Virus record (IMG/VR): IMGVR_UViG_3300033630_000015
Length of the DNA: 64,000 nt
Source of the DNA: an uncultured virus (IMG/VR IMGVR_UViG_3300033630_000015)
Lineage: Duplodnaviria; Heunggongvirae; Uroviricota; Caudoviricetes
Reading direction: 5' to 3' (one strand)
Each line of letters begins with the position of its first letter. The first letter of the stretch is position 1. Shown here piece by piece: positions 3,931 through 45,918 of this stretch. A program made the translations under genes and the position numbers. The notes beneath the pieces are model-generated. The model did not search any database. It was given only the letters and a program-made list of their open reading frames with translations, and was not told where the DNA came from.

Positions 3931-4017
3931 GTACACTTTCTTTTTTACGTCAACTTTTTTTTTTACGAAAACATATAAGTATCCTGATGAACGTCTTCCA
4001 TCTTGGAGGATACAAAT

Positions 4018-30212: not shown

Positions 30213-30270
30213 TATACGCGTAAACTAGCAACAAATGATTTATATACTTTTCCACACGCGTAGTTTAGCA
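30213..30270. promoter_or_regulatory. Divergent archaeal promoter with flanking direct repeats
   Basis: TTTATATA at ~30239, between ACGCGTAAACTAGCA (30216) and ACGCGTAGTTTAGCA (30256). Confidence 0.55.
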
Positions 30271-31469
30271 TGGCAAAGAAACCAGGTAGGCCATCTTCCG
30301 ATGAAATAGCTACTGAATCGGTGAGACAGGCCAATGATGCTTCTAAGATTGACGTGCAGACAGATGATAACGAAACAGCTAGATTGCTAAAAGAGGCCAA
30401 TGCTATTTTAACGCAATCTGCAAAAACTGATTTATTAAAAGCCGCCGCAACAAATGCTAAAAAGGCCGCCCTAGAAGCAAAAAGAGAAGCTGAAGAAGAA
30501 TATGCTGTCATGAAAAGCAAAACAACTCCACCAACAAACCAGGGATTTCGCTCACTGCCCGCAGGATTTACGGCAGCAGATATTCGCGAGATTGCGAGTG
30601 CTCTTCCCGAGGAACAACGTGAGGCTTTCATACGGCAATCACTGGGTATGCCCAGCGGCAATAGTCTAATAAATGCTTTTATGCAGAGAACCCCAACTGC
30701 ACAACCAGTGGCTGCAACTCAGACACAAACGCAGCAACCCATGTCTTTTGCAGATATGATGCAGGGTATGATGGGTCTTATGACGATGAGCATGCAGTTG
30801 GAGCAGAAGAAGTCTGAGGAATGGCGACAGCAGCAGCAATATCTTGAAGATCAACACCGAAGGCGTGTTGAGGAGCTTCGAGAAGCCCGTGGAGAAGTCC
30901 GAGAGACAGGTCCAGATCCCATGGTTGAGGCATATAAGCTTCAGATCGAGATGTTAAAGAGTGAGTTGGACACCAATCGGGCAATGATCAAAGAACTGGT
31001 TGATGCTAAAAAGAGCGGTGGAGACAGTTCTGGCATGCTTGAATCCAAGATCTTGGAACTTACTCAGAAGAATCTGGATATCCAAAACCAGGCTCTTGAA
31101 GCGAAAGTGAAATCCATGGAGGCGCAATTGCAGCAAAGCAGTCGCTTCCAAATGAATATTAACGATATTATAAAACAGGCTAAAGAGGCTGGGGCTGATC
31201 TCAGGGTGGGGGATTCCACAGATCTTCAACTGGCCAACGATCATGAATATAGGATGGAACAGCTAAAATTGGCAAAAGAACGGGAAGACAAGATTGCCGA
31301 GGCCCAGATAGAAGCCGCCAGAGCAAAACAGGCCCAGGCACAATCTCAGCAAGAGTTGATTAAAACAATAGCCGTGGCAGTTGGTCAACAGTTGCTTTCC
31401 AAGAACGGATCAAAAGATGTGAAAGATTCCAGTGAGTCGGTGAAAAAGTTGGCAGGTGCTGTGCAATGA
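30270..31469 (+). CDS. Long coiled-coil protein (candidate scaffold/internal-membrane-associated virion protein)
   Basis: E/Q/K/A-rich heptads; Met-rich amphipathic segment MMQGMMGLMTMSM. Confidence 0.7.
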   Translation: MAKKPGRPSSDEIATESVRQANDASKIDVQTDDNETARLLKEANAILTQSAKTDLLKAAATNAKKAALEAKREAEEEYAVMKSKTTPPTNQGFRSLPAGFTAADIREIASALPEEQREAFIRQSLGMPSGNSLINAFMQRTPTAQPVAATQTQTQQPMSFADMMQGMMGLMTMSMQLEQKKSEEWRQQQQYLEDQHRRRVEELREARGEVRETGPDPMVEAYKLQIEMLKSELDTNRAMIKELVDAKKSGGDSSGMLESKILELTQKNLDIQNQALEAKVKSMEAQLQQSSRFQMNINDIIKQAKEAGADLRVGDSTDLQLANDHEYRMEQLKLAKEREDKIAEAQIEAARAKQAQAQSQQELIKTIAVAVGQQLLSKNGSKDVKDSSESVKKLAGAVQ

Positions 31470-31819
31470 GTTTGGAACAATTAGATCAAATCATTGCAGT
31501 ACACCTTAGCACGGCTGATGATTTTCCCGACGAAACGACCATCAAAGCAGCTTTTCAGCAATCAATGGTAATGGGCGCAGACCGCACTGTTAAATATATA
31601 AAATCTATGAATATATGGGAAGTTGCAAGGCCCATTCTCCAAGATGCTATTCAGGATATACCACTAGAAGAAAATCCTGAAATAGCCGGAAGGATATTTA
31701 ATGTGATGGAAACATTATATCCCAAGTTCATAATTGCCGTGGCATCGTCTCCTAAGAAGGTGACGCATGCGGGTGATATAATATCGAAGCTAATTAAGGA
31801 GATTAGAAATGGCACTTGA
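31466..31819 (+). CDS. Hypothetical protein
   Basis: ATGA coupling with the upstream gene. Confidence 0.65.
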   Translation: MSLEQLDQIIAVHLSTADDFPDETTIKAAFQQSMVMGADRTVKYIKSMNIWEVARPILQDAIQDIPLEENPEIAGRIFNVMETLYPKFIIAVASSPKKVTHAGDIISKLIKEIRNGT

Positions 31820-32630
31820 GATCAGGAATATAACAGACGACAAATACGGTCTGGTTGACCAGCCTTTCCGGGTTTACAAGGTTCCGGAAGGAGTGGGGCT
31901 TGATGAATATGCGTTGGAGGATTATCGACAACCGTTGTCTTTTGATGCAAACAAGAGACCTCTTACATATCTGCAATTGGCTAAGAACCCGGCAACCCGA
32001 AAATTCGTTCCGTTTGAGGTTCTTTATGATGCCAATGCATATACTGATGATGACATCCTAGCAATACCAACACTAGGAAACATTGGTCAGACGTGTTCTT
32101 ATTGCCAGGCCCGGAACGCTGGTGAAGAACTTGTTAGCAAACTTCCGGTTATCCAGGAGTATCAGAGACCAGTGGGTTCCCCGAAAAAGCTTGACCTTGG
32201 GGATGTCATTACTCCAAGTGTAATACCAACAGCTGTTGATGTGTTTTCGAAGATTTTTTGTCAGCCGTTGGGAGAAGCCCTGTTGAAGATCGGAGTGTCT
32301 GGATTATCTTCGATTGCTGCTGGGTGGGCATCAGAGGGTGGCACACAGGATGCTTGGAGAAAGATATCTGAAGACATTGTCAGCGAATATAAGATCTGCC
32401 CAACAGATATTCCAGCCTTCCAGCAAAATGTGCTGGCCATTAAGGAGGCTCTTGATAAAGATAAGAAAAACATTCTTGGTGCTCTCGCATCCGGCACAAT
32501 CAAGAATTTTGGTCAGCTCGCGAAGGAACATGGGTTCGAGGTTAGTGGATCAGCCGTGGCAAATGCCAAATTTGCAGGAAGAGCATCAATAGCTCCTCTG
32601 CAACGTGGAGGAGGCCGAGCAATCGACTGA
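31809..32630 (+). CDS. Hypothetical protein with a hydrophobic segment
   Basis: GGAG RBS; ALLKIGVSGLSSIAAGW. Confidence 0.65.
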   Translation: MALEIRNITDDKYGLVDQPFRVYKVPEGVGLDEYALEDYRQPLSFDANKRPLTYLQLAKNPATRKFVPFEVLYDANAYTDDDILAIPTLGNIGQTCSYCQARNAGEELVSKLPVIQEYQRPVGSPKKLDLGDVITPSVIPTAVDVFSKIFCQPLGEALLKIGVSGLSSIAAGWASEGGTQDAWRKISEDIVSEYKICPTDIPAFQQNVLAIKEALDKDKKNILGALASGTIKNFGQLAKEHGFEVSGSAVANAKFAGRASIAPLQRGGGRAID

Positions 32631-32635
32631 TCATC

Positions 32636-32848
32636 ATGAATAAAACTGCTATGAATCAAGTGACGGCATTGCTGCGGAGTAAAAATATATCCGCTTCAGA
32701 TATAAAAAGAGCAAATGAAACAGTTGCTGCAAATGGGCTCCGTATTAGCGAGCTACAGACCGCGTTGTATTTCGCTGATAATGGAGACTTGCAGCAAGCA
32801 AGAATCATGGCTGGACGAGCTGCTACTGCTATTCAGCGATTACTCTAG
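32636..32848 (+). CDS. Small helical hypothetical protein
   Basis: ORF in the operon. Confidence 0.55.
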   Translation: MNKTAMNQVTALLRSKNISASDIKRANETVAANGLRISELQTALYFADNGDLQQARIMAGRAATAIQRLL

Positions 32849-33004
32849 GGCCAGTTTCATTTTTTGTTTGGGCATTTCCGGGTTGGCTCTAAGCCAGGAA
32901 TCCACCATGGCCCTTAACTCCACGCTCATTTTCTTTTTTCTGGTAATACAGCGTTGATGGAATTCAAGCCCCATGTCATCTGATATTTCAAAGGTTATTC
33001 TCAT
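32840..33004 (-). CDS. Ribbon-helix-helix regulator
   Basis: MRITFEISDDMGLEFHQRC...MSVELRAMVDSWL; divergent from the capsid-like gene. Confidence 0.7.
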   Translation of the reverse strand: MRITFEISDDMGLEFHQRCITRKKKMSVELRAMVDSWLRANPEMPKQKMKLALE

Positions 33005-33097
33005 ATTATGCAATTGGGCTTTTAGAATATATACCTTTCGTAAAATGACAAAAAACACTTATATATAAAAAACTTGTTTTATTTATCGGTCAATTGA

Positions 33098-34297
33098 TTG
33101 ACCAGGATGAAACACATGGTAAAAGGTTTCGGAAGAATGACTTTGAATTTTAAGTATCCATTTTCCGTAGTGGGTACTACAGCTGGAGCTTCCATTCAGT
33201 GTGGGGATGACCCTGTATATGTATGGGAGCACGGCCTGGAAAGATACAGCAAACCTTGGGAACTAGCACCCGACATGGTCGCCGAGCTGGAGGGCATAGA
33301 AGTGATTGGCGGGGTAGATGCCTTCGGGCGGCGTGTTCCTATCAAGAGGATTGTTCCGGTAATAAGTGGTAATGACGTTGGCGAGAACATCTCCATTAAC
33401 GAGCACATGGCTCCTGCTCTAAGGGACGGCCCCAATGATCCCAGCTATCCGTTCCGCGACAGGCTCGCATGCGTCAACTTCGGCAAGGCTCTTCTGATGG
33501 GTGGCGGCGCAAATACCACATCTATAAAGATGGGACCAAGTGACACCCTGAACTTCAAGATCGAGTTTCCCACGGTTGCCCACGGTGGCGATGCAGTCAT
33601 AAATTCTGATCTTGAGATCAAAGCTCACATCGCCTTCGCGAAGGGTGCAGATCAGATGCTGAATGCGCTGAGATCATCCCCAGTTGCTGAGGTAGCCGCC
33701 GCTGCTGCCAATAACCAGATCAGGCAGTATGAGGTCTTGGGAGATCTTGAGATTTCTGATGTCATTGCTCCGCAGGTAATTGATAGATCGGTCCCAGCAA
33801 CAATGGATTGGTGGTCCAGCCTGAATATGGGTCTGAATGCCGATGACCCCCAGATCAAGAGAATCATCACCTATACCAAGAACAACCAGCCCACCACTCC
33901 GAATCAGGAAATGGAGATGGTGCGTGATGGTCAGTATGTCCAGGTGCCATTCCAGAATTTCAGGTGGACGGCAACTGAAAAGAAGTTTTACAGGTTTACT
34001 CATGTTGGTGTAATTCCCCATAGAAATATGTTCCAGGTGAAGTTTGATAACGGCAACAGCCGCTACCCGATGATCTTTAACTGTGAACCAAACGACAACC
34101 CGTTTGTAATGCCACAGCAATCTCTGGTTGCAGATATCAGACGTGGAGGACCAACTGAGTTGCCTCGCGCATATACCCTCATGAAGGGAATTGGATCTGT
34201 GAAGGTAACCGATAACGGTGTATCAATTCCCGCTTGGGCAGCTGGTGTTAGAGGATTCGAAATAGCCCTCTGGGGATATGAGTACACATTACAGTAG
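33098..34297 (+). CDS. Putative major capsid protein 1 (double-jelly-roll-like; true start possibly 33137)
   Basis: About 390 aa in two beta-rich halves ending FEIALWGYEY; strong TATA (TTATATATAAA ~33059); first gene of the structural block. The fold is inferred. Confidence 0.5.
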   Translation: MTRMKHMVKGFGRMTLNFKYPFSVVGTTAGASIQCGDDPVYVWEHGLERYSKPWELAPDMVAELEGIEVIGGVDAFGRRVPIKRIVPVISGNDVGENISINEHMAPALRDGPNDPSYPFRDRLACVNFGKALLMGGGANTTSIKMGPSDTLNFKIEFPTVAHGGDAVINSDLEIKAHIAFAKGADQMLNALRSSPVAEVAAAAANNQIRQYEVLGDLEISDVIAPQVIDRSVPATMDWWSSLNMGLNADDPQIKRIITYTKNNQPTTPNQEMEMVRDGQYVQVPFQNFRWTATEKKFYRFTHVGVIPHRNMFQVKFDNGNSRYPMIFNCEPNDNPFVMPQQSLVADIRRGGPTELPRAYTLMKGIGSVKVTDNGVSIPAWAAGVRGFEIALWGYEYTLQ

Positions 34298-34307
34298 GTG
34301 ATAAAAA

Positions 34308-35084
34308 ATGGCATTTGCTTTCTTCCCTATCGGTGCGGTTGGTCTGACCACGGTGCAGGGTGTTTCTGCATATTGGGTTAGACTTCCCATCGGCTCAAAG
34401 CCCATTCGTGACATCTACACTGCTGGAGTTCCTGCCGTCACTGACGGCAAGGGCGTGGTAATGATGGCACTGGGAGTACAGGAGTCCCTGGTTCTCGATG
34501 ATTGCGAGGACGCATGGGACGAGGATGTGCCGGCAAACTTTACGGTTTCGCTGGACGCCGCAGACAAGATGGTTGGAACCTCGTCTGTAAAGGTAGATAT
34601 TGCGGCTGCTGCTGCCGCTGGTACAATATTGTGCGAAGTTGTTGCACCCGGCACGGCCTTGCCCAAATTCACCCATTTGGAGTTCTGGATCAAGAGTAGC
34701 GTCGCCACCGCCGCCGGAGATCTTCAGATCCTGCTGGGCGATACCGCAAAGTGCGTCAGCCCTCTGGAAACTCTCAACGTGCCTGCCCTGGTCGCAGACA
34801 AATGGACTCATGTCCGCGTTGCACTTCTGACGCCACAGCTTGATACCGCTATCATAAGCCTCGGCCTGAAGTACACCGTAGACATTGGTGCCTGTACGAT
34901 CCATCTTGACGACTTCCGAGCCGTCAGACTAGCCACAGTTGCCACTCCACTCCAGGTCTCTCAGTTCGTCCAGGACGATGTGTATTTCGCATTGTCTGAA
35001 GCTGTGGATTCTGCGTATCATCAGAATGCCTTAATGCTGGTATATTACACCAGCCCGGACGAAGATCCAACTTGCAGCAATTAG
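34308..35084 (+). CDS. Structural protein with an inserted carbohydrate-binding (CBM-like) beta-sandwich
   Basis: LDDCED.W..GTSSVK..LEFWIKS..KWTHVRV..IHLDDFR pattern. Confidence 0.6.
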   Translation: MAFAFFPIGAVGLTTVQGVSAYWVRLPIGSKPIRDIYTAGVPAVTDGKGVVMMALGVQESLVLDDCEDAWDEDVPANFTVSLDAADKMVGTSSVKVDIAAAAAAGTILCEVVAPGTALPKFTHLEFWIKSSVATAAGDLQILLGDTAKCVSPLETLNVPALVADKWTHVRVALLTPQLDTAIISLGLKYTVDIGACTIHLDDFRAVRLATVATPLQVSQFVQDDVYFALSEAVDSAYHQNALMLVYYTSPDEDPTCSN

Positions 35085-35103
35085 AGGTAATAAAATTACC
35101 TCT

Positions 35104-35328
35104 CTATTTTTTTATAAAATTAAATAAAGTTGCTCTTATATCTCGTGTGAGACTGTCCACATCTAAATTGCTGTTTATTTTTGGCGGGAACACAATCAAG
35201 ACCCCATGATCCAGCAATTGCAGATCATCTCCGGCCTTTACGCCGTGCTGTTTCGTCCATGCGGCGGGCAATGTTATTCTATTAGATCCTCCACTTGGGA
35301 TCGCCTTGACAGTTCTAAATATTGGCAT
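35104..35328 (-). CDS. AbrB/MazE/SpoVT-family regulator
   Basis: SGGSNRITLPAAWTKQHGVKAGDDL signature. Confidence 0.85.
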   Translation of the reverse strand: MPIFRTVKAIPSGGSNRITLPAAWTKQHGVKAGDDLQLLDHGVLIVFPPKINSNLDVDSLTRDIRATLFNFIKK

Positions 35329-35448
35329 GAATAATACCACTATATTCCTAATATATAACATTGTTGAACAAGGCCATTAAATAAAAATAACCTGATTGAA
35401 CATTGTACTACTTTGTTCCGCATTTGTTTTTATATTAATCTCCCATAA

Positions 35449-36531
35449 ATGATTATTATGACAGCATTCTTGAACCTGGCATACGCCAGGTATCCAACCG
35501 AAGTACTCCCGGAAGTATTCCGGGTCAATGTACCTGTCAACAGCATAGAAGTCGCTCGATACGAGAACTTTGGCAAAAGATTGATTGAGATTCGAAATGT
35601 AGTCTCCACGAGACCCGCTGCCAATCCAATTGAAACTCTCATCGCCACCGACAAATCAGACGAAGCTCTAAGGTTATATTCAGCAGCGCAGGCCGGTGTC
35701 TGGAACGAGGACTCTCCTGCAATCTACAATAAGACCAGGGCCAGCTCCTATGCATATATCAGGCAGAGAAGTATAGGTGGGGCTGAGGCAGACATCACTA
35801 CCAGATATCACGTAGTGGTCCGGAATTACAACATGCTGGACCTCTACAGGTGGGGCGTAAAGGACCCCGAGGTAGCTCTGAACATGATCGAGAGCAGGCT
35901 TGACGATGCCGCCAAAACCCGAATCTATGATACTGCGAACCTGATCGAACGAGCCTTGATAGGATCTCTTCCTGTTCACCAGGACCTTCTGAACCCCTCG
36001 GTTGAGGAACAGTTTGAGGAAGTTAAAGAGATATCCAGACAGATCCCCGGTCTACCCGCAAATGGCGGATCTCATGTTTTATCTGGAGCCTGGATCAGAG
36101 TTCCCCCAGGATATGTAGCCGTGATCCTCGGCGTCGGGGTAGATGCCACCCAGGTCAGAAACAACCTGAGCGCAGGAGCCTTAGATCCATACGATGCCTG
36201 CCATATTTTCATCAGCCGGGACGATTTGACAAATTATGTCAGAATGGATGCTGCCTGCATGCCTTCAGGTGGTCTGGGATTACCTGATGTTGATATGAGG
36301 ATGTATATCCCGGCTTGCCAAAAGTTCCAAGTTGAGATTATCAACAACCATGCCGTTAATGCGGTGGCAGCCAACCTCCGGCTAAGGGTTCGATACGGTC
36401 TCCGAAAGATGACGATCATTGATCATCAAAAATGGGGCATCGCCTACGCAACGGATGTTGAACAGGCTGCGGCCAACGCACTGATCGAGAAGCATCAGCT
36501 TAATGACCTGATTTATATAGGCGAGATGTAA
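35449..36531 (+). CDS. Putative major capsid protein 2 (double-jelly-roll-like)
   Basis: Two beta-rich halves with parallel endings (TTRYHVVVRNYNMLD / RLRVRYGLRKMTIID); VPPGYVAVILGV is typical of jelly-roll strands. The fold is inferred. Confidence 0.5.
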   Translation: MIIMTAFLNLAYARYPTEVLPEVFRVNVPVNSIEVARYENFGKRLIEIRNVVSTRPAANPIETLIATDKSDEALRLYSAAQAGVWNEDSPAIYNKTRASSYAYIRQRSIGGAEADITTRYHVVVRNYNMLDLYRWGVKDPEVALNMIESRLDDAAKTRIYDTANLIERALIGSLPVHQDLLNPSVEEQFEEVKEISRQIPGLPANGGSHVLSGAWIRVPPGYVAVILGVGVDATQVRNNLSAGALDPYDACHIFISRDDLTNYVRMDAACMPSGGLGLPDVDMRMYIPACQKFQVEIINNHAVNAVAANLRLRVRYGLRKMTIIDHQKWGIAYATDVEQAAANALIEKHQLNDLIYIGEM

Positions 36532-36541
36532 GGAGGGAATC

Positions 36542-36913
36542 ATGCTTAAGTACAGGCATGTTCCTTTTGCCGTTTTTCGTCAACAATGCGGCGGGGTTGG
36601 CGAAGCGGGCCTCAAAAGGTACGATATAATGAATGGAGAAGATGGTCTGGCCGGCCTGGGAGTACCTGCAAAAGCCATCACCATCATGAACCATGGCCCT
36701 GGGATCTTGTATTATCAGATCTCTTCGAATGGCCGTGACGTGTCGGTTGTAGATGGAATTGATTCTGGCCAAGGTAAAGGATATCCCGCCGAAGAAGCTG
36801 TTTACGTCGGAGTTATCAGTCTGTACTCCGATAATGCAGCCACCACGTTCTCAATAAATGCCTCTCCTGGTGTATGGACCGAAGAAGAACTGATAGAATT
36901 GATGGAGGCTTAA
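36542..36913 (+). CDS. Small beta-rich structural protein (single-jelly-roll penton-like)
   Basis: GGAGG RBS; PAKAITIMNHGPGILYYQISSNG. Confidence 0.45.
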   Translation: MLKYRHVPFAVFRQQCGGVGEAGLKRYDIMNGEDGLAGLGVPAKAITIMNHGPGILYYQISSNGRDVSVVDGIDSGQGKGYPAEEAVYVGVISLYSDNAATTFSINASPGVWTEEELIELMEA

Positions 36914-36914
36914 A

Positions 36915-37949
36915 ATGCCATCGTTATTTATAACCACAATACGAGCTGATATTGACAGTCTCTACTTAAGCAGAGATTCTGGCGGAACCTTGTTTGTAGA
37001 TCAAGCGTTTCCCGGAGCTTCTGATGATAACGATGGTTTATCAGCAACATCTCCAAAAAAGACCATAACGGGGGCAATTGGTTCTGGTAGCTCCGGCTGG
37101 AAAATACGGGTCGCTCCGGGAAACTACACCGAAAACATCGTGATTCCGGCTGGATACGAAGGGTTGATAATTGAAGGCCGAGATCGTCTTGGTGCAAACA
37201 GAACAACTATTTCCCCAGCATCGGGTATTCCAATCGAGATCAATTCAAACAACGTCGAGATCTTTAATATGGAAATAATTGCTGGGACAGTCGCACCAGG
37301 AGATGCCCATAACACCGCGCTATATCTCAAGGGATTAAATCATAAAATCCATGATCTATCCATCCTCGGAAATAGCGATGGTTGTTGGGGAATATGGCTC
37401 GATGATGCTGATTACGCTGATGTGCATGACTGCTACATTGATGGCGGATATAAGGTAGATGGAATAGGTGTTTTTATCGGCGATAACACAATATCCAGCA
37501 AGATCCATAACAATTACATTACTAAATGGGGGAGCGGAGTAGGTGACGGCGGGGCCAACAATGGATATGGTATTGGTCGGCACATAAATGCACAGAGATC
37601 GCTAATCACTGAAAATGATATCCTTGATAATTACGTTGGAATCTACTATTATCCGCCCGGAGGTCCAACCGATATCGAAGGAGATTCTATAATCCACAAC
37701 AACTTCGCAGAGAATACCTCGTATGATATTTACGACACCCACGAATATCCTGAGTCTGCAATTAACATCGACAGTAATTTCTTTGGATATTCTACAGGAG
37801 GTGTCGTCTGGCATGCAGACAGCAACGGGGACAATGTTGCCGATTCCATAATATTCTGCGGAACAAATCGCGATAGACACCCATTGGCCGGGCCACATAT
37901 ATGGCGCGGAGTTGTTGGCAGCTTGCCGAGGTTCGGAGGCTTAACATGA
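36915..37949 (+). CDS. Right-handed beta-helix (NosD/pectin-lyase-like) spike protein
   Basis: DDNDGLS..PKKTI..VAPGNYTENIVI; repeated GIWL/IHNN/ITEN beta-helix rungs. Confidence 0.8.
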   Translation: MPSLFITTIRADIDSLYLSRDSGGTLFVDQAFPGASDDNDGLSATSPKKTITGAIGSGSSGWKIRVAPGNYTENIVIPAGYEGLIIEGRDRLGANRTTISPASGIPIEINSNNVEIFNMEIIAGTVAPGDAHNTALYLKGLNHKIHDLSILGNSDGCWGIWLDDADYADVHDCYIDGGYKVDGIGVFIGDNTISSKIHNNYITKWGSGVGDGGANNGYGIGRHINAQRSLITENDILDNYVGIYYYPPGGPTDIEGDSIIHNNFAENTSYDIYDTHEYPESAINIDSNFFGYSTGGVVWHADSNGDNVADSIIFCGTNRDRHPLAGPHIWRGVVGSLPRFGGLT

Positions 37950-38045
37950 AAAAATTTAGAAACACCGAAAAAGGCAAACCCGGTGAGTTGCTGGGAATTT
38001 TAGATGCTGTTCCAGTTCCTATCAAAATAGAGGAGGAGATCGAAG

Positions 38046-39497
38046 ATGATAACAGGAATTGAACCTTTCAATGTCTTGCCCAGTTCGATAGTAGCCAATG
38101 ATAGCTTTTATAGCGATTCTGATCTTTGGAAAGATCCTGTTATCAATGGAACGACGTTTACCCGATCAGATGGCTGGATGGTTGCTGCGCATGGCGTAGG
38201 CGGCGGCACTGGCATATCTTATCTTCAGGCCAATCAGAGATTCGGAACTCAGATGTCGTTTGAAGTTATCATGAGTCTATATGCATTTGATCCTGCCAGC
38301 AATAACCAAATTTCGGGTATCAGATTGTGGGTAGACGACGATAATTGGTTTGTTCTCGGTGCAGAAATCAACGCTGGAAACCAATCCGCAGCAATGCTTA
38401 GGTACAAAATTGCAGGAGCCGAAAGTGTTGTTCATTTTCCCGTGAATGGGGCAGATGCAACACGCAGCAACCTTGATGCGTATCGTAGACATTTCAGGAT
38501 TGATGTACTGAATGATCACCTAGTGATATACGTCAACAGTGTCAAGCGATTTGATCTAAAGGCAAACGCGGTTCCACTACTGAATTATTACTTCGAACTG
38601 ATTGCTGGGACAACCGACGATACCAAGGCTTTTCAGGCGCATTTCCGGGATGCTGTATATCGAAACCACATAACGACCCCGGAAGTTTACCCGGCTAAAA
38701 CAGGCGGGTCAATAACCCTGAGCGATACAACCCCATCTGAACTGATCTTCACGGATGAAATATCAGGAAATCTCTTCGAGCTGGTATTGAGAGCAGATCT
38801 TGACGAGGCCTACATAAACCAGGCATGGGTGCTTGACTCACCCGCAACCTATGATGACATAACATCAGAATGCAATGATTTGACGACTGGTATGGCCGTT
38901 TTACTACCAGCTGTTCCTGCTGCTGATGATGCGGTGATCTTAGGCGCATCTGAAAAATTTGATCATGTGGACGTATATATGGACGGCGGAGTTTCCAACA
39001 TAGACAATGAATTCAATGTATTATATTGGAACGGCGCTTCCTGGGCAGCTCTAGCTGTCACCGATGGCACGAATGGAGGAGTTGCCGGGAGGACCTTCTA
39101 CGAGAATGGGCGGATCACATTTGCGCCACCTGCTAATTGGACAGCAATTTCCGTAAATGGCGTTAGCTGCTACTACATAAGTATTCATGTTGTAACAGCC
39201 GGTTCGAGTGTTCCCGTAGCCACGCATATTCAGTTGGGTTTAGTCAGCCACAGTGGATTCGACCATGCAGCCGCATTCCTGAGTACGCTTGAAGTAAAGA
39301 TGTTCAAAGGCTTTACTGGTATTGGATATACCCGGTCTTATATGGACGCAATGTCATACCGGCAGTGTGTGGGAGAACGCAATGTTGAAATCAATGGCTG
39401 GAGATGTGATGGAGATGCAAAGATAACGTTCCAACTCTCGGAAACTCCCACGAAGCCGGTTGTTATACCATATTACGTATTCACCAGGAGGCTATAA
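38046..39497 (+). CDS. Lectin-like (ConA/LamG-type) beta-sandwich virion protein
   Basis: HFRIDVLNDHLVIYVNSV; YWNGASW..VTDGT..GRITF motif typical of spike proteins. Confidence 0.6.
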   Translation: MITGIEPFNVLPSSIVANDSFYSDSDLWKDPVINGTTFTRSDGWMVAAHGVGGGTGISYLQANQRFGTQMSFEVIMSLYAFDPASNNQISGIRLWVDDDNWFVLGAEINAGNQSAAMLRYKIAGAESVVHFPVNGADATRSNLDAYRRHFRIDVLNDHLVIYVNSVKRFDLKANAVPLLNYYFELIAGTTDDTKAFQAHFRDAVYRNHITTPEVYPAKTGGSITLSDTTPSELIFTDEISGNLFELVLRADLDEAYINQAWVLDSPATYDDITSECNDLTTGMAVLLPAVPAADDAVILGASEKFDHVDVYMDGGVSNIDNEFNVLYWNGASWAALAVTDGTNGGVAGRTFYENGRITFAPPANWTAISVNGVSCYYISIHVVTAGSSVPVATHIQLGLVSHSGFDHAAAFLSTLEVKMFKGFTGIGYTRSYMDAMSYRQCVGERNVEINGWRCDGDAKITFQLSETPTKPVVIPYYVFTRRL

Positions 39498-39499
39498 AA

Positions 39500-41236
39500 A
39501 TGGGAGTAGTTGCCGCTCGTAGCGCCGGAAAGGTGGACAAGTTATCAACTCGCAGGATAGACGAAACGCTATACATCGGCAACGTTAGTGGTCTGGCCAG
39601 AAACCAGATCATTAACCTCCATCCCATCACCCGCATGGAAAAAAACCCAGCTCAGCTCATGGCCACTGTCATGGCCGATCCAATAGGATCGATGGTGGGT
39701 AAATGGGTTGAAAAGAAATCTGGCATCAGCGGAGTCCAAACTTGGGCAAAGCTGGAAGGCATCACCTCTTCAATAAGTAGCCGAGACATAATGCTGCTCG
39801 AAAGCTCAAAAGATTTTAGGAAAGTGCGCGACGTCGGGGTATTTAAAACACCTGGCGAAATAATGAATGAGGATACTAAAATTGCAACAACCGGGCTGGG
39901 AGTGCAGTCTATAACCGTGGCAACTGATGTTGAATTTTATGAGGGAACATATGGGGGTTATTCTTTATATCCACATATTGGAAAACATATATACATATCG
40001 CCAGAAGGCAGAATCGGGTTATTTGTTTGTATGCAATATGGGGGTACTTTATCTCCGGTGGGAGTATATATCTATTCGGATGATGGCGGCAAAACATGGA
40101 CCTGGTATAGAATTGATTCATCAACTGACAACCCACAGACACAGGGATCGTTTTGCGCAGATGCATACGGAAATCTTCATTTCGTATGGAGAGAAGATAT
40201 TAGTACCACTGACGACGTTAGGATAAAATATCGAAAATATAATGCCACGACAAAAACATTTGGGAGTGTCCAAACGATAAGTACAGCAACCGGGGTTAGA
40301 ACAATATGCCCAATGATTCAACCCACTCCCATGGGCGACTCTGTCGAAATAATGTGGGAAAGCACCGGATATGCATCAGACGTTAACTATCCCCAGCTTC
40401 TTCTACGCGGGGTAAATGCGGATGAAACATTGGGAACGCTTTACCAATTGACCACAGATGGATCTATAACTCATCGATATATTTATCATTCATTTGATTA
40501 CGATTCGCAGGGATATCGTCATATAATGGCCATAGCTAAATGTGATACCGTCAATCCGGATCTCGGCAATCTTTGGTACATTCGGCAAACATCTGACGGA
40601 TGGCAGCCCAAAGTAGCATTGAATACGGATGCCGGTGATGTAAACGCGCTGCATTACATGTCAAATATTTTAATCAATAAACATGATGAAGTCTATTGCG
40701 CATATGCTATCGGGCCATTTGATGCTGTCAGCAAGCGTCCATTATATATTAAACAAATAAAAAATGGTGTAATCGGACCAAGAGTAACTGTGGAAGCAGG
40801 TAACCCGAGTCCTGGCGGAACTTATCCAAATATTCAGGTAGATTCCGATGGCCGAATCTGCGTAGTGTATGCCAGCAATACAGCTCCTGATACATATTCC
40901 TTGCGATCTTTAAATCGGGCTTTAACCGAAGTTGGAACCAGAATCGTCATCTACACGTTAGCAGCTGGCGATGAAATGTCCTATTTCCACATCCCTTGGA
41001 GCATACCACCCAATGTCCAGGGAGTCAATCCAAATGTCCCATTGCAGGGAATGACCATGGTGATGGCCAAACATAACTCTGCAACCCCTGAAAAGGTGGA
41101 CATACAGATTCATCATACTGGAAATAGTGTATTTGGAGCACCAGCAACGCCCAGTAAAATATTGACCAAATCATACAACATCAGAGGTATAGCCAGTAGA
41201 ACTAAGTTCAACGCAGGGTTCAACCCGGTGATCTAG
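39500..41236 (+). CDS. BNR/Asp-box beta-propeller (sialidase-like) adhesin
   Basis: YSDDGGKTW Asp-box; repeated D..G.LH.VW blades. Confidence 0.75.
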   Translation: MGVVAARSAGKVDKLSTRRIDETLYIGNVSGLARNQIINLHPITRMEKNPAQLMATVMADPIGSMVGKWVEKKSGISGVQTWAKLEGITSSISSRDIMLLESSKDFRKVRDVGVFKTPGEIMNEDTKIATTGLGVQSITVATDVEFYEGTYGGYSLYPHIGKHIYISPEGRIGLFVCMQYGGTLSPVGVYIYSDDGGKTWTWYRIDSSTDNPQTQGSFCADAYGNLHFVWREDISTTDDVRIKYRKYNATTKTFGSVQTISTATGVRTICPMIQPTPMGDSVEIMWESTGYASDVNYPQLLLRGVNADETLGTLYQLTTDGSITHRYIYHSFDYDSQGYRHIMAIAKCDTVNPDLGNLWYIRQTSDGWQPKVALNTDAGDVNALHYMSNILINKHDEVYCAYAIGPFDAVSKRPLYIKQIKNGVIGPRVTVEAGNPSPGGTYPNIQVDSDGRICVVYASNTAPDTYSLRSLNRALTEVGTRIVIYTLAAGDEMSYFHIPWSIPPNVQGVNPNVPLQGMTMVMAKHNSATPEKVDIQIHHTGNSVFGAPATPSKILTKSYNIRGIASRTKFNAGFNPVI

Positions 41237-41599
41237 ATGCCCCCTGACAAAGAACGTCAATTGAAGGCACTGCGAGAGATGCTGGATGGGATTTACTTAG
41301 ATGCCACTCAATCACATGCTACCGGAACGGTACCCTGCGATTTAACCATAATTTTTACAGCTTTGGCATCGCTTACAGTAAGTTATGATGATGTAAAAGA
41401 AGATGTCCGATCCTTGAAAGACAGCATGGCTGAGGTACAGACCGGATTGCACGAAATAGCAACAACCATAAAGGTATGCGACGCCGCCGATCAAGGTAAA
41501 AAAGCCGCATGGACAGCAATAATTGCATTTGTATCAGGCGGACTTGGAGTAACATTGATAAAATGGATATTGGATACATACTTAAATAATGTGATATAG
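41237..41599 (+). CDS. Coiled coil + C-terminal TM protein
   Basis: Heptads followed by AAWTAIIAFVSGGLGVTLIKWIL. Confidence 0.6.
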   Translation: MPPDKERQLKALREMLDGIYLDATQSHATGTVPCDLTIIFTALASLTVSYDDVKEDVRSLKDSMAEVQTGLHEIATTIKVCDAADQGKKAAWTAIIAFVSGGLGVTLIKWILDTYLNNVI

Positions 41600-43987
41600 G
41601 TGATATGCATGAAAAGACCAACCGCTAGACAATCTGCCTGGCAATGGCAAGAAAGAATAGGCATTGCCGATAGGAAAACACTAGACGGAGACCAATCTGT
41701 CTATTTCAATCGTCTGATGGATCTTGGCGACCCCATAGAACCGTACGACGTTGCTCATAAAAAGTATGTAGATGACGCTCTGCTGCATGCTGGAGGGGGC
41801 GGTGGAGAAGAGGTGATGATTGAGCATTTGGCAACTTTTGATCACCCCGCCATCCATCCCAGCAATATCGTAGACGGAGACCCAGTAGACGTTACTGGCC
41901 GTGATATTGATGATATCCTTACCTGGAATGGAACTGCATGGGTCCCAGTTTCGCCGCCAGTCTCAGTTGTTGGAGAAAATATAAATGATGTTCTCACTTG
42001 GAATGGAACTACATGGGTTTCTGCTCCCCCTGTGGCTGCGGGGGGAATACCCGATTTTGACATAGCTGTGGTCCTGGAAGGAACCACTATCAAAGTAGTC
42101 AACAATGAAGGAGATGTTATCGACACCGGTGTTCTTGGAACTGATGACACGGATTGTTTCGATACCGCAGTCGCAGCTTGCCCTCATAATGGAATGCTGT
42201 ACATTGGCCCAGGGACATTCACTCTTAAAGCAAACAAGTTATTTTATTTAAACGGTGGAGATGAGGGCAGCGCTTCAAATCCATTCTATTATGCGATTGG
42301 GGTATTAGATGGAAAAAATATGGCAATTCAAGGATCTGGTATAGGTTCAACCATTCTTAAAATGGACGCCGGTCAACATTACGAAGATCATCACGCCGTG
42401 CTGATTCTCAACCGTGCCCATTGGTGGGATTACGGAGCGACAATGTTTGTTGTTTCCGACATGACATTAGATGGGAATAGAGCCAACCAAGCAGAATGGT
42501 ATTATGATGGCCCTGGATTGATATTAACAGGTAGCATAGCCAGCAACTTCCGATTCCAGCGTCTCTGGCTCAAAGATAGCTTCGGATATGGCATATATTG
42601 TGGAAATAATGGCAGCGGCCCCGTGGCCGGGTTGGTTTTTAATGACATACGTGCCACAAATTGCTACAAATCAGCGATAATGACCGATACGGTATGCGGG
42701 TTACTCATAAACAATTGTCTGATTGAAGATAGCAATGCTGGTATTGAATGTGTCGGCAATCAGCCTGATTACCTGACCCGTGCTAGAGATGCTATCGTTA
42801 TATCGGATGTCATCTGCTTCCGGTCTGGAATAACATTGTGGACAGTGAACGACGTTACCATGAACAGCGTCTACATGGATTGCACCGGGGCTCCACTTCA
42901 GTATGGTTTGTTAATCCATAGCGCAATTCGGGTAATGGTGAGCGCCAGTAAATTTATAAATAACACCAATTATAAGTATTCAACATTTATTGACGCGAAT
43001 ACTTATATGGAGGATGGTCCTTGTCAGGTGTTTTTCAACAACTGCAACTTCGAGGGGTCTCACGCTTTTCGTATTCTTGGGGAAGCCGAAGTTATTATGC
43101 ATGGCGGCCAGATCCAGGGATATAGATCTTGCGTTTACATGGTTGGCGAATATGAATCTCCCGTCGCTTGTAAACTCAGAATGAAAGGTGTCGAATTGTT
43201 GGCCTTACAACCTATTGGAGAAGATCCAGAGCCAACACTCTTACTTGATATCGCTTCCGGTGGATATGTTGAAATGGATCAATGTCATGCTCCAAAGGCT
43301 GGTTATTTCCAGCTTGCTGCTGGTGCTAATCATTTCATCCGTGACTCAACGGGAGTCGGGTTGGAGGGACACAATTCTCGGTGGAGAGTAGAAGAAGGAA
43401 CTTATGTGGCTACCCCTGCAAGTACTTCTACAATAACAACTACTATTGATAGAGCCGGAGCTATCATTATCGGAACTCCGATTTGTTATCAGATTGCCGG
43501 AGTCAGGTACATGGGCATCGTTACGAATGTCACAATCGATACCATCACAATTGCCGGGGCACCTCTTACTGGTGACATTGAAAAACTATTCATTGGCGTT
43601 TCCGAGATGGTCGGGCAGGCTGATTATGTTATTCCTGGGGCGTTTTCGGCAATTGCTGAGGACGAGCTAATAAAAACCTTCCAGAAATCTCATAGCGTCT
43701 GGAGAGGCCGCCCTGCATATCTGGTATGGATTGGTAACATTGTTCAGGTTCTTGATTCAACCGTGCAGCCCAAGATTAACGTGACTATTAATGGGAATGC
43801 CGTTTCTACTGACAACGGTGGAGATGGAATTGCGGTTGGAGTAGTTCTTCAATCAACATCTGTGGGGATCAACCCCGCGACTTATAAGATTGAAAACGGT
43901 GATGTTATCGAGGTTACCACAACCCAGGGTGGTACTGGTGATGCGTCTGATCTTACGGCATTCTTGACGTTCGTATCGGAGAGTTGA
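41600..43987 (+). CDS. Tailspike-like beta-helix receptor-binding/depolymerase protein
   Basis: DVAHKKYVD and two LTWNGT.W repeats; GPGTF..IQGSG..TILK..LDGNRANQ beta-helix. Confidence 0.8.
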   Translation: MICMKRPTARQSAWQWQERIGIADRKTLDGDQSVYFNRLMDLGDPIEPYDVAHKKYVDDALLHAGGGGGEEVMIEHLATFDHPAIHPSNIVDGDPVDVTGRDIDDILTWNGTAWVPVSPPVSVVGENINDVLTWNGTTWVSAPPVAAGGIPDFDIAVVLEGTTIKVVNNEGDVIDTGVLGTDDTDCFDTAVAACPHNGMLYIGPGTFTLKANKLFYLNGGDEGSASNPFYYAIGVLDGKNMAIQGSGIGSTILKMDAGQHYEDHHAVLILNRAHWWDYGATMFVVSDMTLDGNRANQAEWYYDGPGLILTGSIASNFRFQRLWLKDSFGYGIYCGNNGSGPVAGLVFNDIRATNCYKSAIMTDTVCGLLINNCLIEDSNAGIECVGNQPDYLTRARDAIVISDVICFRSGITLWTVNDVTMNSVYMDCTGAPLQYGLLIHSAIRVMVSASKFINNTNYKYSTFIDANTYMEDGPCQVFFNNCNFEGSHAFRILGEAEVIMHGGQIQGYRSCVYMVGEYESPVACKLRMKGVELLALQPIGEDPEPTLLLDIASGGYVEMDQCHAPKAGYFQLAAGANHFIRDSTGVGLEGHNSRWRVEEGTYVATPASTSTITTTIDRAGAIIIGTPICYQIAGVRYMGIVTNVTIDTITIAGAPLTGDIEKLFIGVSEMVGQADYVIPGAFSAIAEDELIKTFQKSHSVWRGRPAYLVWIGNIVQVLDSTVQPKINVTINGNAVSTDNGGDGIAVGVVLQSTSVGINPATYKIENGDVIEVTTTQGGTGDASDLTAFLTFVSES

Positions 43988-45660
43988 AAATGCTTATCCG
44001 TAGACATTTCGTACCGAGTGCGGGGGTACCAGGTAATTACCCCCCTGTATTGACCAGTTTTGTACCCGACTTAGCCAGTCCGCAGACCTCGGGTGCAACC
44101 ATAAAATTTACCGCGAGTGCAACAGACGTTGAAAGTGATCCTATCGAGTACCGGTTCTATTTAGACGGTGTTCCTCAGACAGAGTTTTCATCAACCAATT
44201 ATTGGGAATGGGTAACGGATGAAGATGACGTAGGTCCGCATACTGTTACTGTGTATGTCCGAGACAATAATCACAGTCCAACCGGAGACGATTCAGAAAC
44301 TGTAGAATATACAGTTAATTCTGTTTATGGATATTATGCAGTATATCCACAGGCATTCGATGAAACCTATGTTAAAACCACTAACCGGTGGCTAGAGTTT
44401 GAAGGGTTTAGAGCAATTGATCCATCTCTTGCATTGGATGGTGGACGTTATCTAAATAGTTGGCTTACCAATGATGGATACATAGGTTCCCAAAGGCTTC
44501 ACGTAGAATTTACTAGCGCCAGAGTTGTGAAAAGAATTATATATTGCAATTCACATAATGACGGTTACGAAACAAATGTTGGTGTCAAGGATTTCATTAT
44601 CCAAGGAACCAACAATGCCGCTGCCTTTGCGAATCTCACATATGCTGATGATACCAACTGGACAACCATTCCCACCGACGTTTCGGCCATGGTTAAGCAT
44701 CCAGAAGGCTACGATGGAGTGATCTGGAATACCATCAACCTTACAAATGATACCGCATATAAATATTATGCCATAAAATGTGCAAATAATCATGGCAATA
44801 CACATTATATTGGTATCAGGCGATTGGAGTTCCAGATTCTTTCTGTAGATAATTTACCACCCACCATAACCAGCCTAACACCAAATCTGGCTAGCCCGCA
44901 ACCAGCCGGCGCAACAATTACCTTCACAGCCGCTGCTTCAGATCCTGAAGGTGATGCTCTTCAATATCAGTTTTATGTTGACGGGGTCGCACAAACCGGA
45001 TTCGGAAGCAATAGTTGGGCATGGGAAACAGATGCTGGCGATATTGCTGCGCATACTATCAGTGTGAAAGTCAGGGATAATAACAATAATCCATTCGGAG
45101 ATGATACCGAGACCATCAATTACACCATAGTGACGCCACCAGAATATGTTGCGGTATATCCACCTGCCTATAACGAAACCTATATTAAAACCACAAACCG
45201 TTGGTTTGAGTTCGAGGGTTTCCGAGCGGTTGATCCCGCATTGTCTCTCAGCGGAGGACGTTATCTAAATAGTTGGCTCACGGAAAATGGACATACCGGA
45301 TCGCAGAGGTTCCATGTCGAATTTGCGTCAGCACAGGTGATTAAAAGAATCGAATACTGCAATTCACACCACGATGGCTACGAAACAGATGCCGGTGTCA
45401 AGGACTTTACAATACAGGGATCAAATAGTGCGACTGCATTTGCAAATTTGACCTATGCTGACAATACTGATTGGACTGATATCACAGCCAATATATCTTC
45501 TATGACCCAACACACTGAAGGCTACGACGGGGCCATATGGCGCATAATCGAATTAACAAATGATGTGGCCTATAAATATTACGCAATAAAATGCGCAAAT
45601 AATCATGGGGATGGCAATAACATAGGTCTCAGGAGGGTTGTATTCAAGAAATTGGTCTAA
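43984..45660 (+). CDS. Adhesin with a duplicated [Ig/PKD-like + discoidin/F5-8C-like] unit
   Basis: Two highly similar ~270-aa units (ASPQ..GATI.F.A.A.D.E.D; VKDF.IQG.N; YKYYAIKCANNHG). Confidence 0.8.
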   Translation: MKMLIRRHFVPSAGVPGNYPPVLTSFVPDLASPQTSGATIKFTASATDVESDPIEYRFYLDGVPQTEFSSTNYWEWVTDEDDVGPHTVTVYVRDNNHSPTGDDSETVEYTVNSVYGYYAVYPQAFDETYVKTTNRWLEFEGFRAIDPSLALDGGRYLNSWLTNDGYIGSQRLHVEFTSARVVKRIIYCNSHNDGYETNVGVKDFIIQGTNNAAAFANLTYADDTNWTTIPTDVSAMVKHPEGYDGVIWNTINLTNDTAYKYYAIKCANNHGNTHYIGIRRLEFQILSVDNLPPTITSLTPNLASPQPAGATITFTAAASDPEGDALQYQFYVDGVAQTGFGSNSWAWETDAGDIAAHTISVKVRDNNNNPFGDDTETINYTIVTPPEYVAVYPPAYNETYIKTTNRWFEFEGFRAVDPALSLSGGRYLNSWLTENGHTGSQRFHVEFASAQVIKRIEYCNSHHDGYETDAGVKDFTIQGSNSATAFANLTYADNTDWTDITANISSMTQHTEGYDGAIWRIIELTNDVAYKYYAIKCANNHGDGNNIGLRRVVFKKLV

Positions 45661-45684: not shown

Positions 45685-45918
45685 TTACCCCTTCTTCGGG
45701 GGTAAACACTTCAACTCAAACTCTTCTCCCAGGTCCAAAGTGTCCAGGAGTTCTTCAGCCAGCTCCTCGTCGGGTCCGGTGATGGTTAACGTGGCCTTGT
45801 ATCTCCCAAGACCATTTTCATAGAGACCCTGGCACTTGACCTCGAACGTCTTTTTGGTTTCACCCGAAGAAAGAAGCTTGAGAGGCTTCGGACCAGCAAC
45901 TATGGTTGTTATTTTCAT
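45685..45918 (-). CDS. Hypothetical protein
   Basis: Start coupled to the MC1 stop. Confidence 0.6.
   Translation of the reverse strand: MKITTIVAGPKPLKLLSSGETKKTFEVKCQGLYENGLGRYKATLTITGPDEELAEELLDTLDLGEEFELKCLPPKKG

Follow-up and report, generated by a model that had tools for sequence, protein, structure and literature searches.

A probable lineage of large, tailless double jelly-roll viruses of archaea from anaerobic digesters, with no recognized packaging ATPase

PRD1 (Tectiviridae) and STIV (Turriviridae), both members of the Bamfordvirae, have genomes of 15-18 kb and capsid proteins, P3 and B345, with a vertical double jelly-roll (DJR) fold. Viruses of the PRD1-adenovirus lineage have icosahedral particles with trimeric pseudo-hexagonal capsomers and a single jelly-roll penton protein at the vertices, and most prokaryotic members contain an internal membrane. 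DJR viruses are also marked by an FtsK/HerA (A32-like) packaging ATPase, the gene by which the PRD1-type morphogenesis module is defined. To our knowledge, the described bacterial and archaeal DJR viruses have genomes of ~10-20 kb and all encode a packaging ATPase of the FtsK/A32 type. Large genomes with a DJR capsid are known from eukaryotic giant viruses, and we know of no tailed virus whose shell protein is a double jelly-roll. The Coyopavirales (Chaacviridae and Ixchelviridae) are tailless viruses of ANME-1 archaea from methane-cycling habitats; their description reports DJR capsid proteins that resemble no known ones in sequence and came to light only through AlphaFold2, and gives chaacviruses genomes of 10-11 kb and a protein-primed PolB (PMC9894754). 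Mriyaviruses are large eukaryotic DJR viruses reported to have genomes of 35-45 kb (PMC11253617).

The 64-kb window, meaning the whole stretch of DNA analyzed here, covers the greater part of a virus-like genome 69-77 kb in size. We think it probable, short of certain, that this genome belongs to an undescribed lineage of large tailless DJR viruses of anaerobic-digester archaea that lacks the usual packaging ATPase. A preliminary description of this DNA had already suggested an undescribed lineage of at least 64 kb, and both points hold up: searches of GenBank phage and archaeal-virus records and of the literature turned up nothing similar, and relatives measure 69-77 kb. All of the open reading frames that it named are present where it placed them (Table 1). 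Terminal repeats in three relatives mark complete genomes, and the 123-bp repeat of one of these, G003, was confirmed by a check; a circular or circularly permuted genome of 69-77 kb is most likely. Comparisons were made mainly with G003, to which 38 of the 71 window proteins tried have matches, and with G002, a near-identical record that includes part of the genome beyond the window. Sixteen studies of anaerobic digesters, sludge, biogas and wastewater contain near-identical DNA, in a total of 20 sequencing runs, six of the libraries being RNA. There is no DNA-level match between the window and GenBank phages, a tRNA search found none, and an Rfam search returned no family.

Table 1. Coordinates of the structural block and adjoining genes in the window (AF2, AlphaFold2; G003, complete relative; L035, metagenome locus with a distant capsid-gene homologue).
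Feature	Coordinates	Strand	Basis
Two small conserved genes, divergent from the structural block	29142-29558, 29570-30004	-	Homologues in L035 and G003
399-aa A/Q/E/K-rich protein, probably coiled-coil	30270-31469	+	Composition; five long Pro/Gly-poor segments
Two conserved proteins, 117 aa and 273 aa	31466-32630	+	Homologues of the 273-aa protein in G003 and L035
Major capsid protein candidate, double jelly-roll, 396 aa	33107-34297	+	AF2, Foldseek
258-aa beta-sandwich-like protein directly 3' of the capsid gene	34308-35084	+	Choice-of-anchor J, E 0.0033 (weak)
AbrB/SpoVT-type small DNA-binding regulator	35104-35361	-	Pfam MazE_antitoxin (AbrB fold), E 9.4e-7
360-aa protein, predicted jelly-roll domains at residues ~14-126 and ~187-321, joined by helices	35449-36531	+	AF2
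123-aa conserved protein, candidate penton/vertex component	36542-36913	+	Conservation; gene order in metagenome locus L045
Right-handed beta-helix protein, spike/fibre, possibly depolymerase	36915-37949	+	DUF1565, E 3.2e-6
483-aa protein, weak carbohydrate-binding-module match	38046-39497	+	PDB 2vng, E 0.0056
578-aa protein, Asp-box-like motif SDDGGKTW	39500-41236	+	Motif in translation
120-aa protein, C-terminal transmembrane anchor	41237-41599	+	Hydropathy scan
795-aa beta-helix protein, spike/fibre	41600-43987	+	Pfam Beta_helix, E 1.1e-4, below cut-off
558-aa protein, two Ig-like (Big_7) and DUF5000-like units	43984-45660	+	Big_7, E 1.8e-11 (two stretches); DUF5000, E 4e-5
MC1 chromatin protein, lysine-rich N-terminal extension	45918-46355	-	Pfam MC1, E 5.9e-19
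RecA-superfamily ATPase (RadB/Sak4-like), deviant P-loop	46352-47806	-	PHROG UvsX-like, E 1.4e-7; RadB, E 8e-5

The capsid candidate is predicted, with high confidence, to fold as a vertical double jelly-roll, like PRD1 P3 and STIV B345. Its AF2 model, built from an input alignment of 39 sequences, has a pLDDT of 93.2 and a pTM of 0.92, and PM2 P2 and PRD1 P3 stand at the top of its Foldseek matches (E 3e-5 to 1e-4). This predicted fold is what it has in common with the Tectiviridae and Turriviridae capsid proteins; identity to P3 and B345 is only 7-9% in structural alignments, and there is no profile match. A PDB profile search with the capsid family revealed no relation (best E 0.035, CFAP20), and tblastn of the protein against GenBank phage and archaeal-virus records gave no match. 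A DJR capsid protein visible only through AlphaFold2 is also what the element would share with the Coyopavirales as their description portrays them, along with an archaeal host, a methane-cycling habitat and the lack of a tail. From the chaacviruses it is set apart, by that published description rather than by sequence comparison, through its 69-77 kb genome and its RNA-primed-type PolB. For the capsid candidate, 33107 is a more likely start than the TTG at 33098; a TTTATATA box precedes 33107.

The same fold, with the same Z (9.2-10.2), is found in cellular enzymes of the DUF2961/GH172 group (PDB 4kq7, 8ic8, 7v1v), and DUF2961 structures are interspersed with the capsid matches in the Foldseek list, an intermixing also described for true DJR capsid proteins (PMC8812541). 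A virus of spindle-shaped, pleomorphic or other archaeal morphotype might be built from other virion proteins, and its DJR protein might serve outside the shell, for example in receptor recognition by glycan binding or cleavage, in the manner of DUF2961/GH172 enzymes or of DJR-like domains in phage tail proteins. The BFVD matches do include Gordonia phage minor tail proteins, no packaging ATPase or proven penton accompanies the gene, and around its distant homologues lie epimerase, aminotransferase, methyltransferase and glycosyltransferase genes of sugar-nucleotide modification, a neighbourhood comparable to that reported for DUF2961 genes (PMC8812541). We nevertheless consider such a non-shell role unlikely. 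None of the 39 family members matches any Pfam family, DUF2961 included, and a beta strand closes the model at its C terminus, where DUF2961 proteins are described as having a helix (PMC8812541). G, P, N and T make up most of the near-invariant residues in the 39-sequence alignment; D369 is the sole acidic one and would not by itself supply a catalytic carboxylate pair. The sequence shows no signal peptide, the gene neighbours spike genes within a genome of viral character, and its product is the best conserved of the 38 proteins matching G003 (77.6%, against 30-70% for the others). Spindle-shaped archaeal viruses have a small, highly hydrophobic alpha-helical major capsid protein that is conserved across the group. 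An ORF of 75 aa at 14887-15114 with two hydrophobic helices might favour another morphotype; no match to it was found in G003 (tblastn, E 1e-2).

Transcription is consistent with a shell function. In three metatranscriptome runs from three studies, RNA contigs limited to the capsid gene and the next gene have a word depth of 73-169, against 4-19 for neighbours; contig depth is a poor basis for ranking genes, and RNA run X15 was flat, but within the block the capsid gene may have the highest transcript abundance. Intervals at 43343-45343 were without RNA contig cover in runs X17, X19 and X20.

The preliminary description had proposed two DJR capsid proteins, each of 360-400 aa and made of two beta-rich halves. 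AF2 agrees with the two halves in both proteins, and the capsid assignment stands for the first, through AF2 and Foldseek; it does not extend to the second, at 35449-36531. The two jelly-roll domains in the model of the latter pack unlike a canonical double jelly-roll, and known structures match single domains only, never both together, so that it does not count as a demonstrated DJR capsid protein. We regard it as a candidate vertex (penton or turret) protein or second shell protein. In viruses of the SH1, HHIV-2 and P23-77 type and of the SPV1 type, the lattice is formed from the products of two adjacent single jelly-roll capsid genes, which are accompanied by a packaging ATPase. By hhalign its family has no relation to the capsid family, and a BLAST link between it and the L035 capsid homologue (E 1e-3) was therefore taken as chance; PDB profile and sequence searches with its family found nothing. 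The 123-aa protein is 67% identical to its G003 counterpart and has no profile similarity to either jelly-roll family in hhalign. Capsid-family and 35449-like genes are paired in four distant metagenome loci, and in L045 a capsid-like gene is followed by a 35449-like gene, a 36542-like gene and a beta-helix gene. An alignment of six capsid sequences led to 19 metagenome loci; viral contigs returned nothing with this alignment or with a single distant capsid homologue.

A coiled-coil had been suggested for the 399-aa protein and is plausible from its composition and from the Pro/Gly-poor stretches picked out by a crude script; the protein, which has no family match, is a candidate scaffold or capsid-size (tape-measure-like) protein. 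A TTTATATA box lies ~29 nt upstream of its gene, and L035 has a 424-aa ORF at the equivalent position. The 273-aa protein (31809-32630) shares 61% identity with its G003 counterpart and 25% with a homologue in L035; neither it nor its 117-aa neighbour matches a family, and it has no PDB match. Homologues of the two divergent genes, also without family match, adjoin the distant capsid-gene homologue in L035 (30% and 41% amino-acid identity), and their G003 counterparts are at 47% and 67%. The 258-aa protein is a candidate capsid decoration or minor capsid protein: its counterpart is present twice in G003 (54% and 53%), and RNA contig depth over its gene equals that over the capsid gene. Within it, a strain-variable patch (34693-34881) has diverged in four of the four runs compared. 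The position of the AbrB-type gene is kept in G003.

Downstream lie the proteins that the preliminary description called five adhesins, three of which have beta-helix or Ig-type matches and two no family match. The first beta-helix protein matches a PHROG tail-fibre family (E 6.8e-5) and NosD-like proteins, the second has a weak PHROG tail-fibre match, and the Big_7 protein is a candidate for host recognition. The 578-aa protein has no Pfam, PHROG or PDB match and could, from its motif, be a beta-propeller receptor-binding protein. For the carbohydrate-binding protein that had been suggested, residues 63-167 of the 483-aa protein weakly match Clostridium perfringens CPE0329, whose 2vng module we take to be CBM51; it has no Pfam match, and a similarly weak hit is the anchor J match of the 258-aa protein. 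A 3076-aa giant adhesin-like protein is also encoded in the window. The proposal of a membrane-containing virion found no support, the only transmembrane segment of the block in a hydropathy scan being that of the 120-aa protein.

This wealth of adhesin-like proteins, one of 3076 aa, could also suit a plasmid-like archaeal extrachromosomal element that has its own replisome and surface or secreted proteins and whose jelly-rolls are cellular-type carbohydrate-active proteins, the more so as its genomes are circular at 69-77 kb, Pfam and PHROGs detect no classical virus hallmark by sequence and no packaging ATPase was found. We judge this very unlikely. The closest Foldseek matches of the DJR fold are capsid proteins, the jelly-roll genes keep a conserved order beside beta-helix spike genes, and G002 carries a diversity-generating retroelement directed at an Mtd-like receptor-binding protein; Pfam scans of the window, the G002 extras and G003 revealed no conjugation, partition or integrase genes, and among the ESM Atlas neighbour clusters listed, 54-100% of labels are viral.

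Those clusters are mostly labelled Uroviricota, and automated pipelines therefore appear to call relatives of this element tailed phages. Such labels, the weak tail-fibre matches of the beta-helix proteins, and a genome size and replication genes like those of archaeal tailed viruses are what a highly divergent member of the Caudoviricetes would display, its terminase, portal and HK97 capsid having drifted beyond the reach of profile HMMs. The scans make this extremely unlikely and agree with the earlier view that there is no head-tail module. Pfam was applied to the 15 block proteins, 56 other window ORFs, 22 extra ORFs of G002 and 96 ORFs of G003, and PHROGs to the 15 block proteins and 66 ORFs. 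In these ~250 ORFs there is no terminase (large subunit included), portal, HK97 capsid, tube, sheath or tape measure, with an HK97-fold protein excluded at the level of sequence only; the 15 block proteins gave just beta-helix, Big_7/DUF5000, AbrB/MazE and weak tail-fibre matches. The sole canonical Walker A belongs to an XPD-like helicase, no terminase-type P-loop occurs anywhere, and the best conserved structural protein is predicted to be a double jelly-roll.

The FtsK/HerA packaging ATPase of DJR viruses is likewise missing. None had been seen in the window, and Pfam and PHROGs gave no such match in the window, the G002 extras or G003. Four related records that are complete or nearly so (G002-G005) were also searched in six frames: FtsK_SpoIIIE was found in none of them, and Pox_A32 gave only an 11.4-bit P-loop match inside the RadB/AAA_24-like gene of G003. 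The partial distant capsid loci yielded no packaging ATPase either. We considered the ATPase at 46352-47806 for this role and set it aside, as its best matches are recombinases and it probably acts in recombination. Tblastn (E 1e-5) with this protein found nothing in G003, though a similar-sized ATPase (AAA_24, E 1.8e-12) occupies its position there.

The genome does carry its own PolB of the RNA-primed type and MC1, as first proposed, and a primase-helicase is encoded in G002. The best PolB matches among GenBank viruses are haloarchaeal tailed viruses (23-26% identity). MC1, a candidate genome-condensing protein, contains 18.6% lysine and is conserved in G003; it was not found in the nearest genome, G001. 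Because of MC1, a methanogen-type thymidylate synthase, an MreA-like regulator and the digester habitat, the host is taken to be archaeal. That it is a methanogen, as the preliminary description had it, is plausible but unproven: the closest named cellular MC1 matches read 'archaeon' and 'DPANN group archaeon'. Contigs with the capsid gene sit in bacterial MAG bins by record title; we judged this binning unreliable and did not infer the host from it.

Taken as a virus of the DJR kind, the element would be a tailless dsDNA virus of an anaerobic archaeon that builds its particle, probably an icosahedral one, from the block at 30270-45660. The capsid candidate would form trimeric pseudo-hexagonal capsomers, decorated by the 258-aa protein, with the coiled-coil protein as scaffold or size ruler. 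Five-fold vertices may be built by the 360-aa and 123-aa proteins and bear the two beta-helix spikes together with the other host-binding proteins of 38046-45660. With no FtsK/A32-type or terminase ATPase found, the genome would either be condensed by the lysine-tailed MC1 and enclosed during assembly or be packaged by an unrecognized motor.

Such a virus would depart from PRD1 and STIV in a genome ~4-5x larger, in its own RNA-primed-type PolB, MC1 and primase-helicase, in having no FtsK/A32 packaging ATPase and in the few membrane proteins of its module. Like the Nucleocytoviricota and mriyaviruses, it would combine a DJR shell with a large genome that codes for a family B polymerase and for a chromatin protein that condenses DNA; it would differ in its archaeal host, its small capsid protein without towers and the lack of an A32 ATPase. 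It is conceivable, if rather doubtful, that a deep DJR lineage grew to several times the size of any described prokaryotic member, acquired a full replisome, lost the A32 ATPase and came to assemble its shell around DNA precondensed by MC1. Such a history would mirror, among prokaryotic viruses, the genome growth and chromatin-assisted packaging of large eukaryotic DJR viruses. The capsid protein may also have been recruited independently from a cellular protein of the DUF2961 kind.

If our reading is true, it would widen the size range of prokaryotic DJR viruses several-fold and raise the concrete question of how a DJR shell is filled without a packaging ATPase. It would also offer a testable case for the growth of complexity in DJR viruses. 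Given near-identical DNA across so many runs and studies, these viruses may be common predators of archaea in methane-producing reactors.

The strongest evidence on the particle of this virus is the fold of the 396-aa protein encoded at 33107-34297. Its AlphaFold2 model (pLDDT 93.2, pTM 0.92) is almost all-beta and forms two barrels, and Foldseek against the PDB places PM2 P2 (E 2.8e-5) and PRD1 P3 (about 1e-4) on top, followed by capsid proteins of PR772, iridovirus, PBCV-1 and STIV. In VIA-align against 48,161 representative chains, all full-length matches are known double jelly-roll (DJR) proteins, with PHM, PM2, poxvirus D13, Faustovirus, PBCV-1, phiCjT23 and FLiP among the lower-ranked ones; PRD1 P3 and STIV B345 lie nearest in structure. 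An exhaustive HMMER search recovered 53 cluster representatives at E <= 1e-3 (29 at <= 1e-10; identity 24-58%), of which 38 were aligned with the window protein and 15 left out as fragments or multi-domain matches. None of these 39 members matches Pfam DUF2961 or any other Pfam family, a PDB profile search with the family returned nothing, and no homologue turned up among GenBank phages and archaeal viruses. As a lead only, an ESM Atlas feature search places members with PRD1 P3 domains in the neighbour clusters ranked 16 and 28.

Such a fold could also belong to an enzyme rather than a shell protein. The cellular DJR family DUF2961 matches the model as well as the capsid proteins do, Gordonia phage 'minor tail proteins' occur among the BFVD matches, and distant homologues on three contigs adjoin sugar-nucleotide modification genes. 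In favor of a capsid protein, true DJR capsid queries also give DUF2961 matches nested among the capsid matches, according to the accessible text of PMC8812541, and our protein shows the same pattern. Against an enzyme, it is the most conserved (77.6%; next 70%) of the 38 window proteins, among 71 tried, that match G003, a distant complete relative, and a long spacer of its own, with a TATA-like box, precedes the gene. Among the near-invariant residues of the 39-sequence alignment G, P, N and T predominate and there is a single Asp, a set that appears unlike an expected glycosidase active site. Three metatranscriptome runs from three studies yield contigs limited to this gene with high word depth (e.g. 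33101-34309 in run X19); depth is 73-169 over this gene and, equally, the next one, and 4-19 in neighbouring contigs. As contig depth is no basis for ranking genes and a fourth RNA run is flat, this is only a hint of strong expression. We favor a shell protein.

The three distant homologues (L035, L029, L032; 27-32% identity) lie beside genes for an epimerase/dehydratase, DegT aminotransferase, methyltransferases, radical SAM protein and glycosyltransferase, and in L035 a papain-family protease gene lies upstream; the virus may encode glycosylation of its own capsid. The 258-aa gene adjoining the capsid gene contains a stretch of some 187 nt (34693-34881) that keeps its length but differs in sequence in the contigs of each of the four RNA runs compared, and resembles a surface that varies between strains and is probably exposed.

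The preliminary description had proposed two candidate DJR capsid proteins; the first is a true double jelly-roll, while the second (35449-36531) is better described as a tandem jelly-roll of uncertain role. Its family is narrow, with 22-23 homologues at at least 53% identity bar one 160-aa fragment at 50%. The AF2 model (pLDDT 79, pTM 0.79) has beta-sandwich domains at about 14-126 and 187-321 joined by a helical linker. Credible VIA-align matches (rmsd under 10 A) span a single domain, the N-terminal one resembling Ena pilins (9.1), PR772 chain 6q5u_O and PRD1 P5 (7.1); the few rows that span both domains, among them XepA and C1r/C1s, exceed 26 A. Foldseek returns two-barrel proteins of many kinds, with the STIV MCP not before rank 29. 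On these matches it is a tandem jelly-roll protein rather than a demonstrated DJR capsid protein. Homologues adjoin distant capsid homologues on four contigs, one of which (L045) continues with a homologue of the 123-aa protein (36542-36913) and a beta-helix protein. From the conserved gene order, in which the shell protein is followed by the tandem jelly-roll, the small protein and the spike, we propose a putative vertex complex. Profile comparisons found no sequence relation among the families of 33107-34297, 35449-36531 and the 123-aa protein.

Features of the structural block and of selected genes outside it
Feature	Coordinates	Strand	Basis	Remarks
Family B DNA polymerase with exonuclease domain	8056-10623		Pfam	
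Staphylococcal-nuclease-domain protein	15417-16613	-		flanks 3076-aa protein; conserved in G003
3076-aa protein with PEGA domain	16614-25844	-		conserved in G003
Staphylococcal-nuclease-domain protein, also PEGA domain	26079-27302	+		other flank of 3076-aa protein; conserved in G003
AbrB-type regulator	35104-35361	opposite to block	Pfam	
Right-handed beta-helix protein	36915-37949		Pfam	
Weak match to PDB 2vng	38046-39497			2vng presumably a carbohydrate-binding module
Asp-box-like motif	39500-41236		motif in translation	
Transmembrane anchor	41237-41599		hydropathy scan	sole one found in block
Right-handed beta-helix protein	41600-43987		Pfam	
Two Ig-like + DUF5000 units	43984-45660		Pfam	

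All ORFs named earlier are present at their coordinates. With a single transmembrane anchor in the block, the membrane-containing virion once suggested finds no support in gene content. The lack of a head-tail module, by contrast, is borne out, as a sequence-level result: no terminase, portal, HK97 capsid, protease-scaffold pair, tail tube, sheath or tape measure appeared in scans of the 15 block proteins (Pfam, PHROGs), wider sets of ORFs (Pfam on 56 further window ORFs, PHROGs on 66, NCBIfam on 35 of the window), 22 ORFs confined to the near-identical record G002 and 96 of complete G003 (Pfam). The reported absence of an A32/FtsK packaging ATPase also holds. The only canonical Walker A (regex over every six-frame ORF of 100 aa or more) is in the helicase; six-frame searches of G002 and three more distant relatives (G003-G005) gave no FtsK_SpoIIIE match and, for Pox_A32, only an 11.4-bit P-loop-region match within a RadB/AAA_24-like gene of G003. 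Its window counterpart (46352-47806) has a deviant P-loop, matches UvsX-like and RadB families, and is probably a recombinase.

G002 (IMG/VR, 75,893 bp, CheckV 100%) is 94-97% identical to the window (94% over most of the block) and collinear with 3931-64000. Window 495-2556 maps to its opposite end in the same relative orientation, which fits a circular or circularly permuted genome; about 4.5 kb of G002, retroelement included, is replaced or missing in window 1-3930. Direct terminal repeats in G003 (77,180 bp; 123-bp repeat verified), G004 (70,280 bp) and G005 (69,328 bp) therefore indicate a complete genome of 69-77 kb, mostly within the window.

Outside the block, Pfam identifies an XPD-like helicase, MC1, a RecA-superfamily ATPase, a thymidylate-synthase-like protein and nucleases. 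The 3076-aa PEGA protein and its flanking nuclease-domain proteins may be virion-associated nucleases or adhesins. The rest of G002 (22 ORFs) adds a PrimPol-helicase, exonuclease, radical-SAM enzyme and diversity-generating retroelement. The latter (L009:11350-13736) pairs a reverse transcriptase with an Mtd-like target gene, its 117-nt template and variable repeats differing almost exclusively at template adenines, and is absent from the window (gap near 2556-3931). G003 encodes a DUF1699 protein and carries inteins with homing-endonuclease or Hint domains in PolB and the XPD-like helicase (L024:1106-4732, L023:15503-18097); the window's copies are intein-free.

An archaeal host is well supported by MC1, thymidylate synthase, MreA and digester habitats, while the methanogen first named is plausible but unproven. 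MC1 occurs in two of 14 control genomes (Haloferax volcanii, Methanosarcina acetivorans), and its nearest named cellular matches (41-47% identity) come, by their labels, from an 'archaeon' and a 'DPANN group archaeon'. In the viral MC1 (45918-46355, minus strand; 18.6% Lys) the MC1 domain is preceded by an N-terminal extension of about 30 residues that is rich in lysine, and the nearest cellular matches among those listed are shorter (86-107 aa). NCBIfam matches below cut-off, to a methanogen-type thymidylate synthase (13252-14052, E 6.4e-20) and the MreA regulator family (214-960, E 2.4e-22), are clues towards Methanosarcina-like archaea. Boxes resembling TTTATATA lie upstream of the first genes of operons, and a Shine-Dalgarno-like motif is found for 31 of 62 genes. 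Near-identical DNA occurs in 20 runs (six of them RNA libraries) from 16 studies, with the labels anaerobic digester, bioreactor sludge, biogas fermenter, wastewater or activated sludge. Two contigs with the capsid gene (95-99% identity) sit in MAGs titled Acholeplasmataceae bacterium and Saccharibacteria bacterium, likely by mis-binning into small-genome bins.

The accessible text of the 2025 ICTV archaeal summary (PMC12451623) names no methanogen-infecting DJR virus. A digester methanogen-virus survey saw tailless icosahedral particles by TEM, the contigs described in its available sections being tailed and spindle-type (PMC9796341). Literature searches, confined to main texts and with partial journal coverage, turned up no account of an archaeal DJR virus of 70 kb. 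The nearest analogues among described archaeal viruses are the ANME-1 Coyopavirales, whose DJR capsid proteins were likewise found only by structure prediction but which, in the available text, have 10-11 kb genomes and a protein-primed polymerase (PMC9894754). Given one true DJR protein, complete genomes without a head-tail module and no packaging ATPase, we consider this fairly likely to be a tailless virus with a DJR capsid, and its 69-77 kb genome, large as first proposed, is far above those of described prokaryotic DJR viruses.
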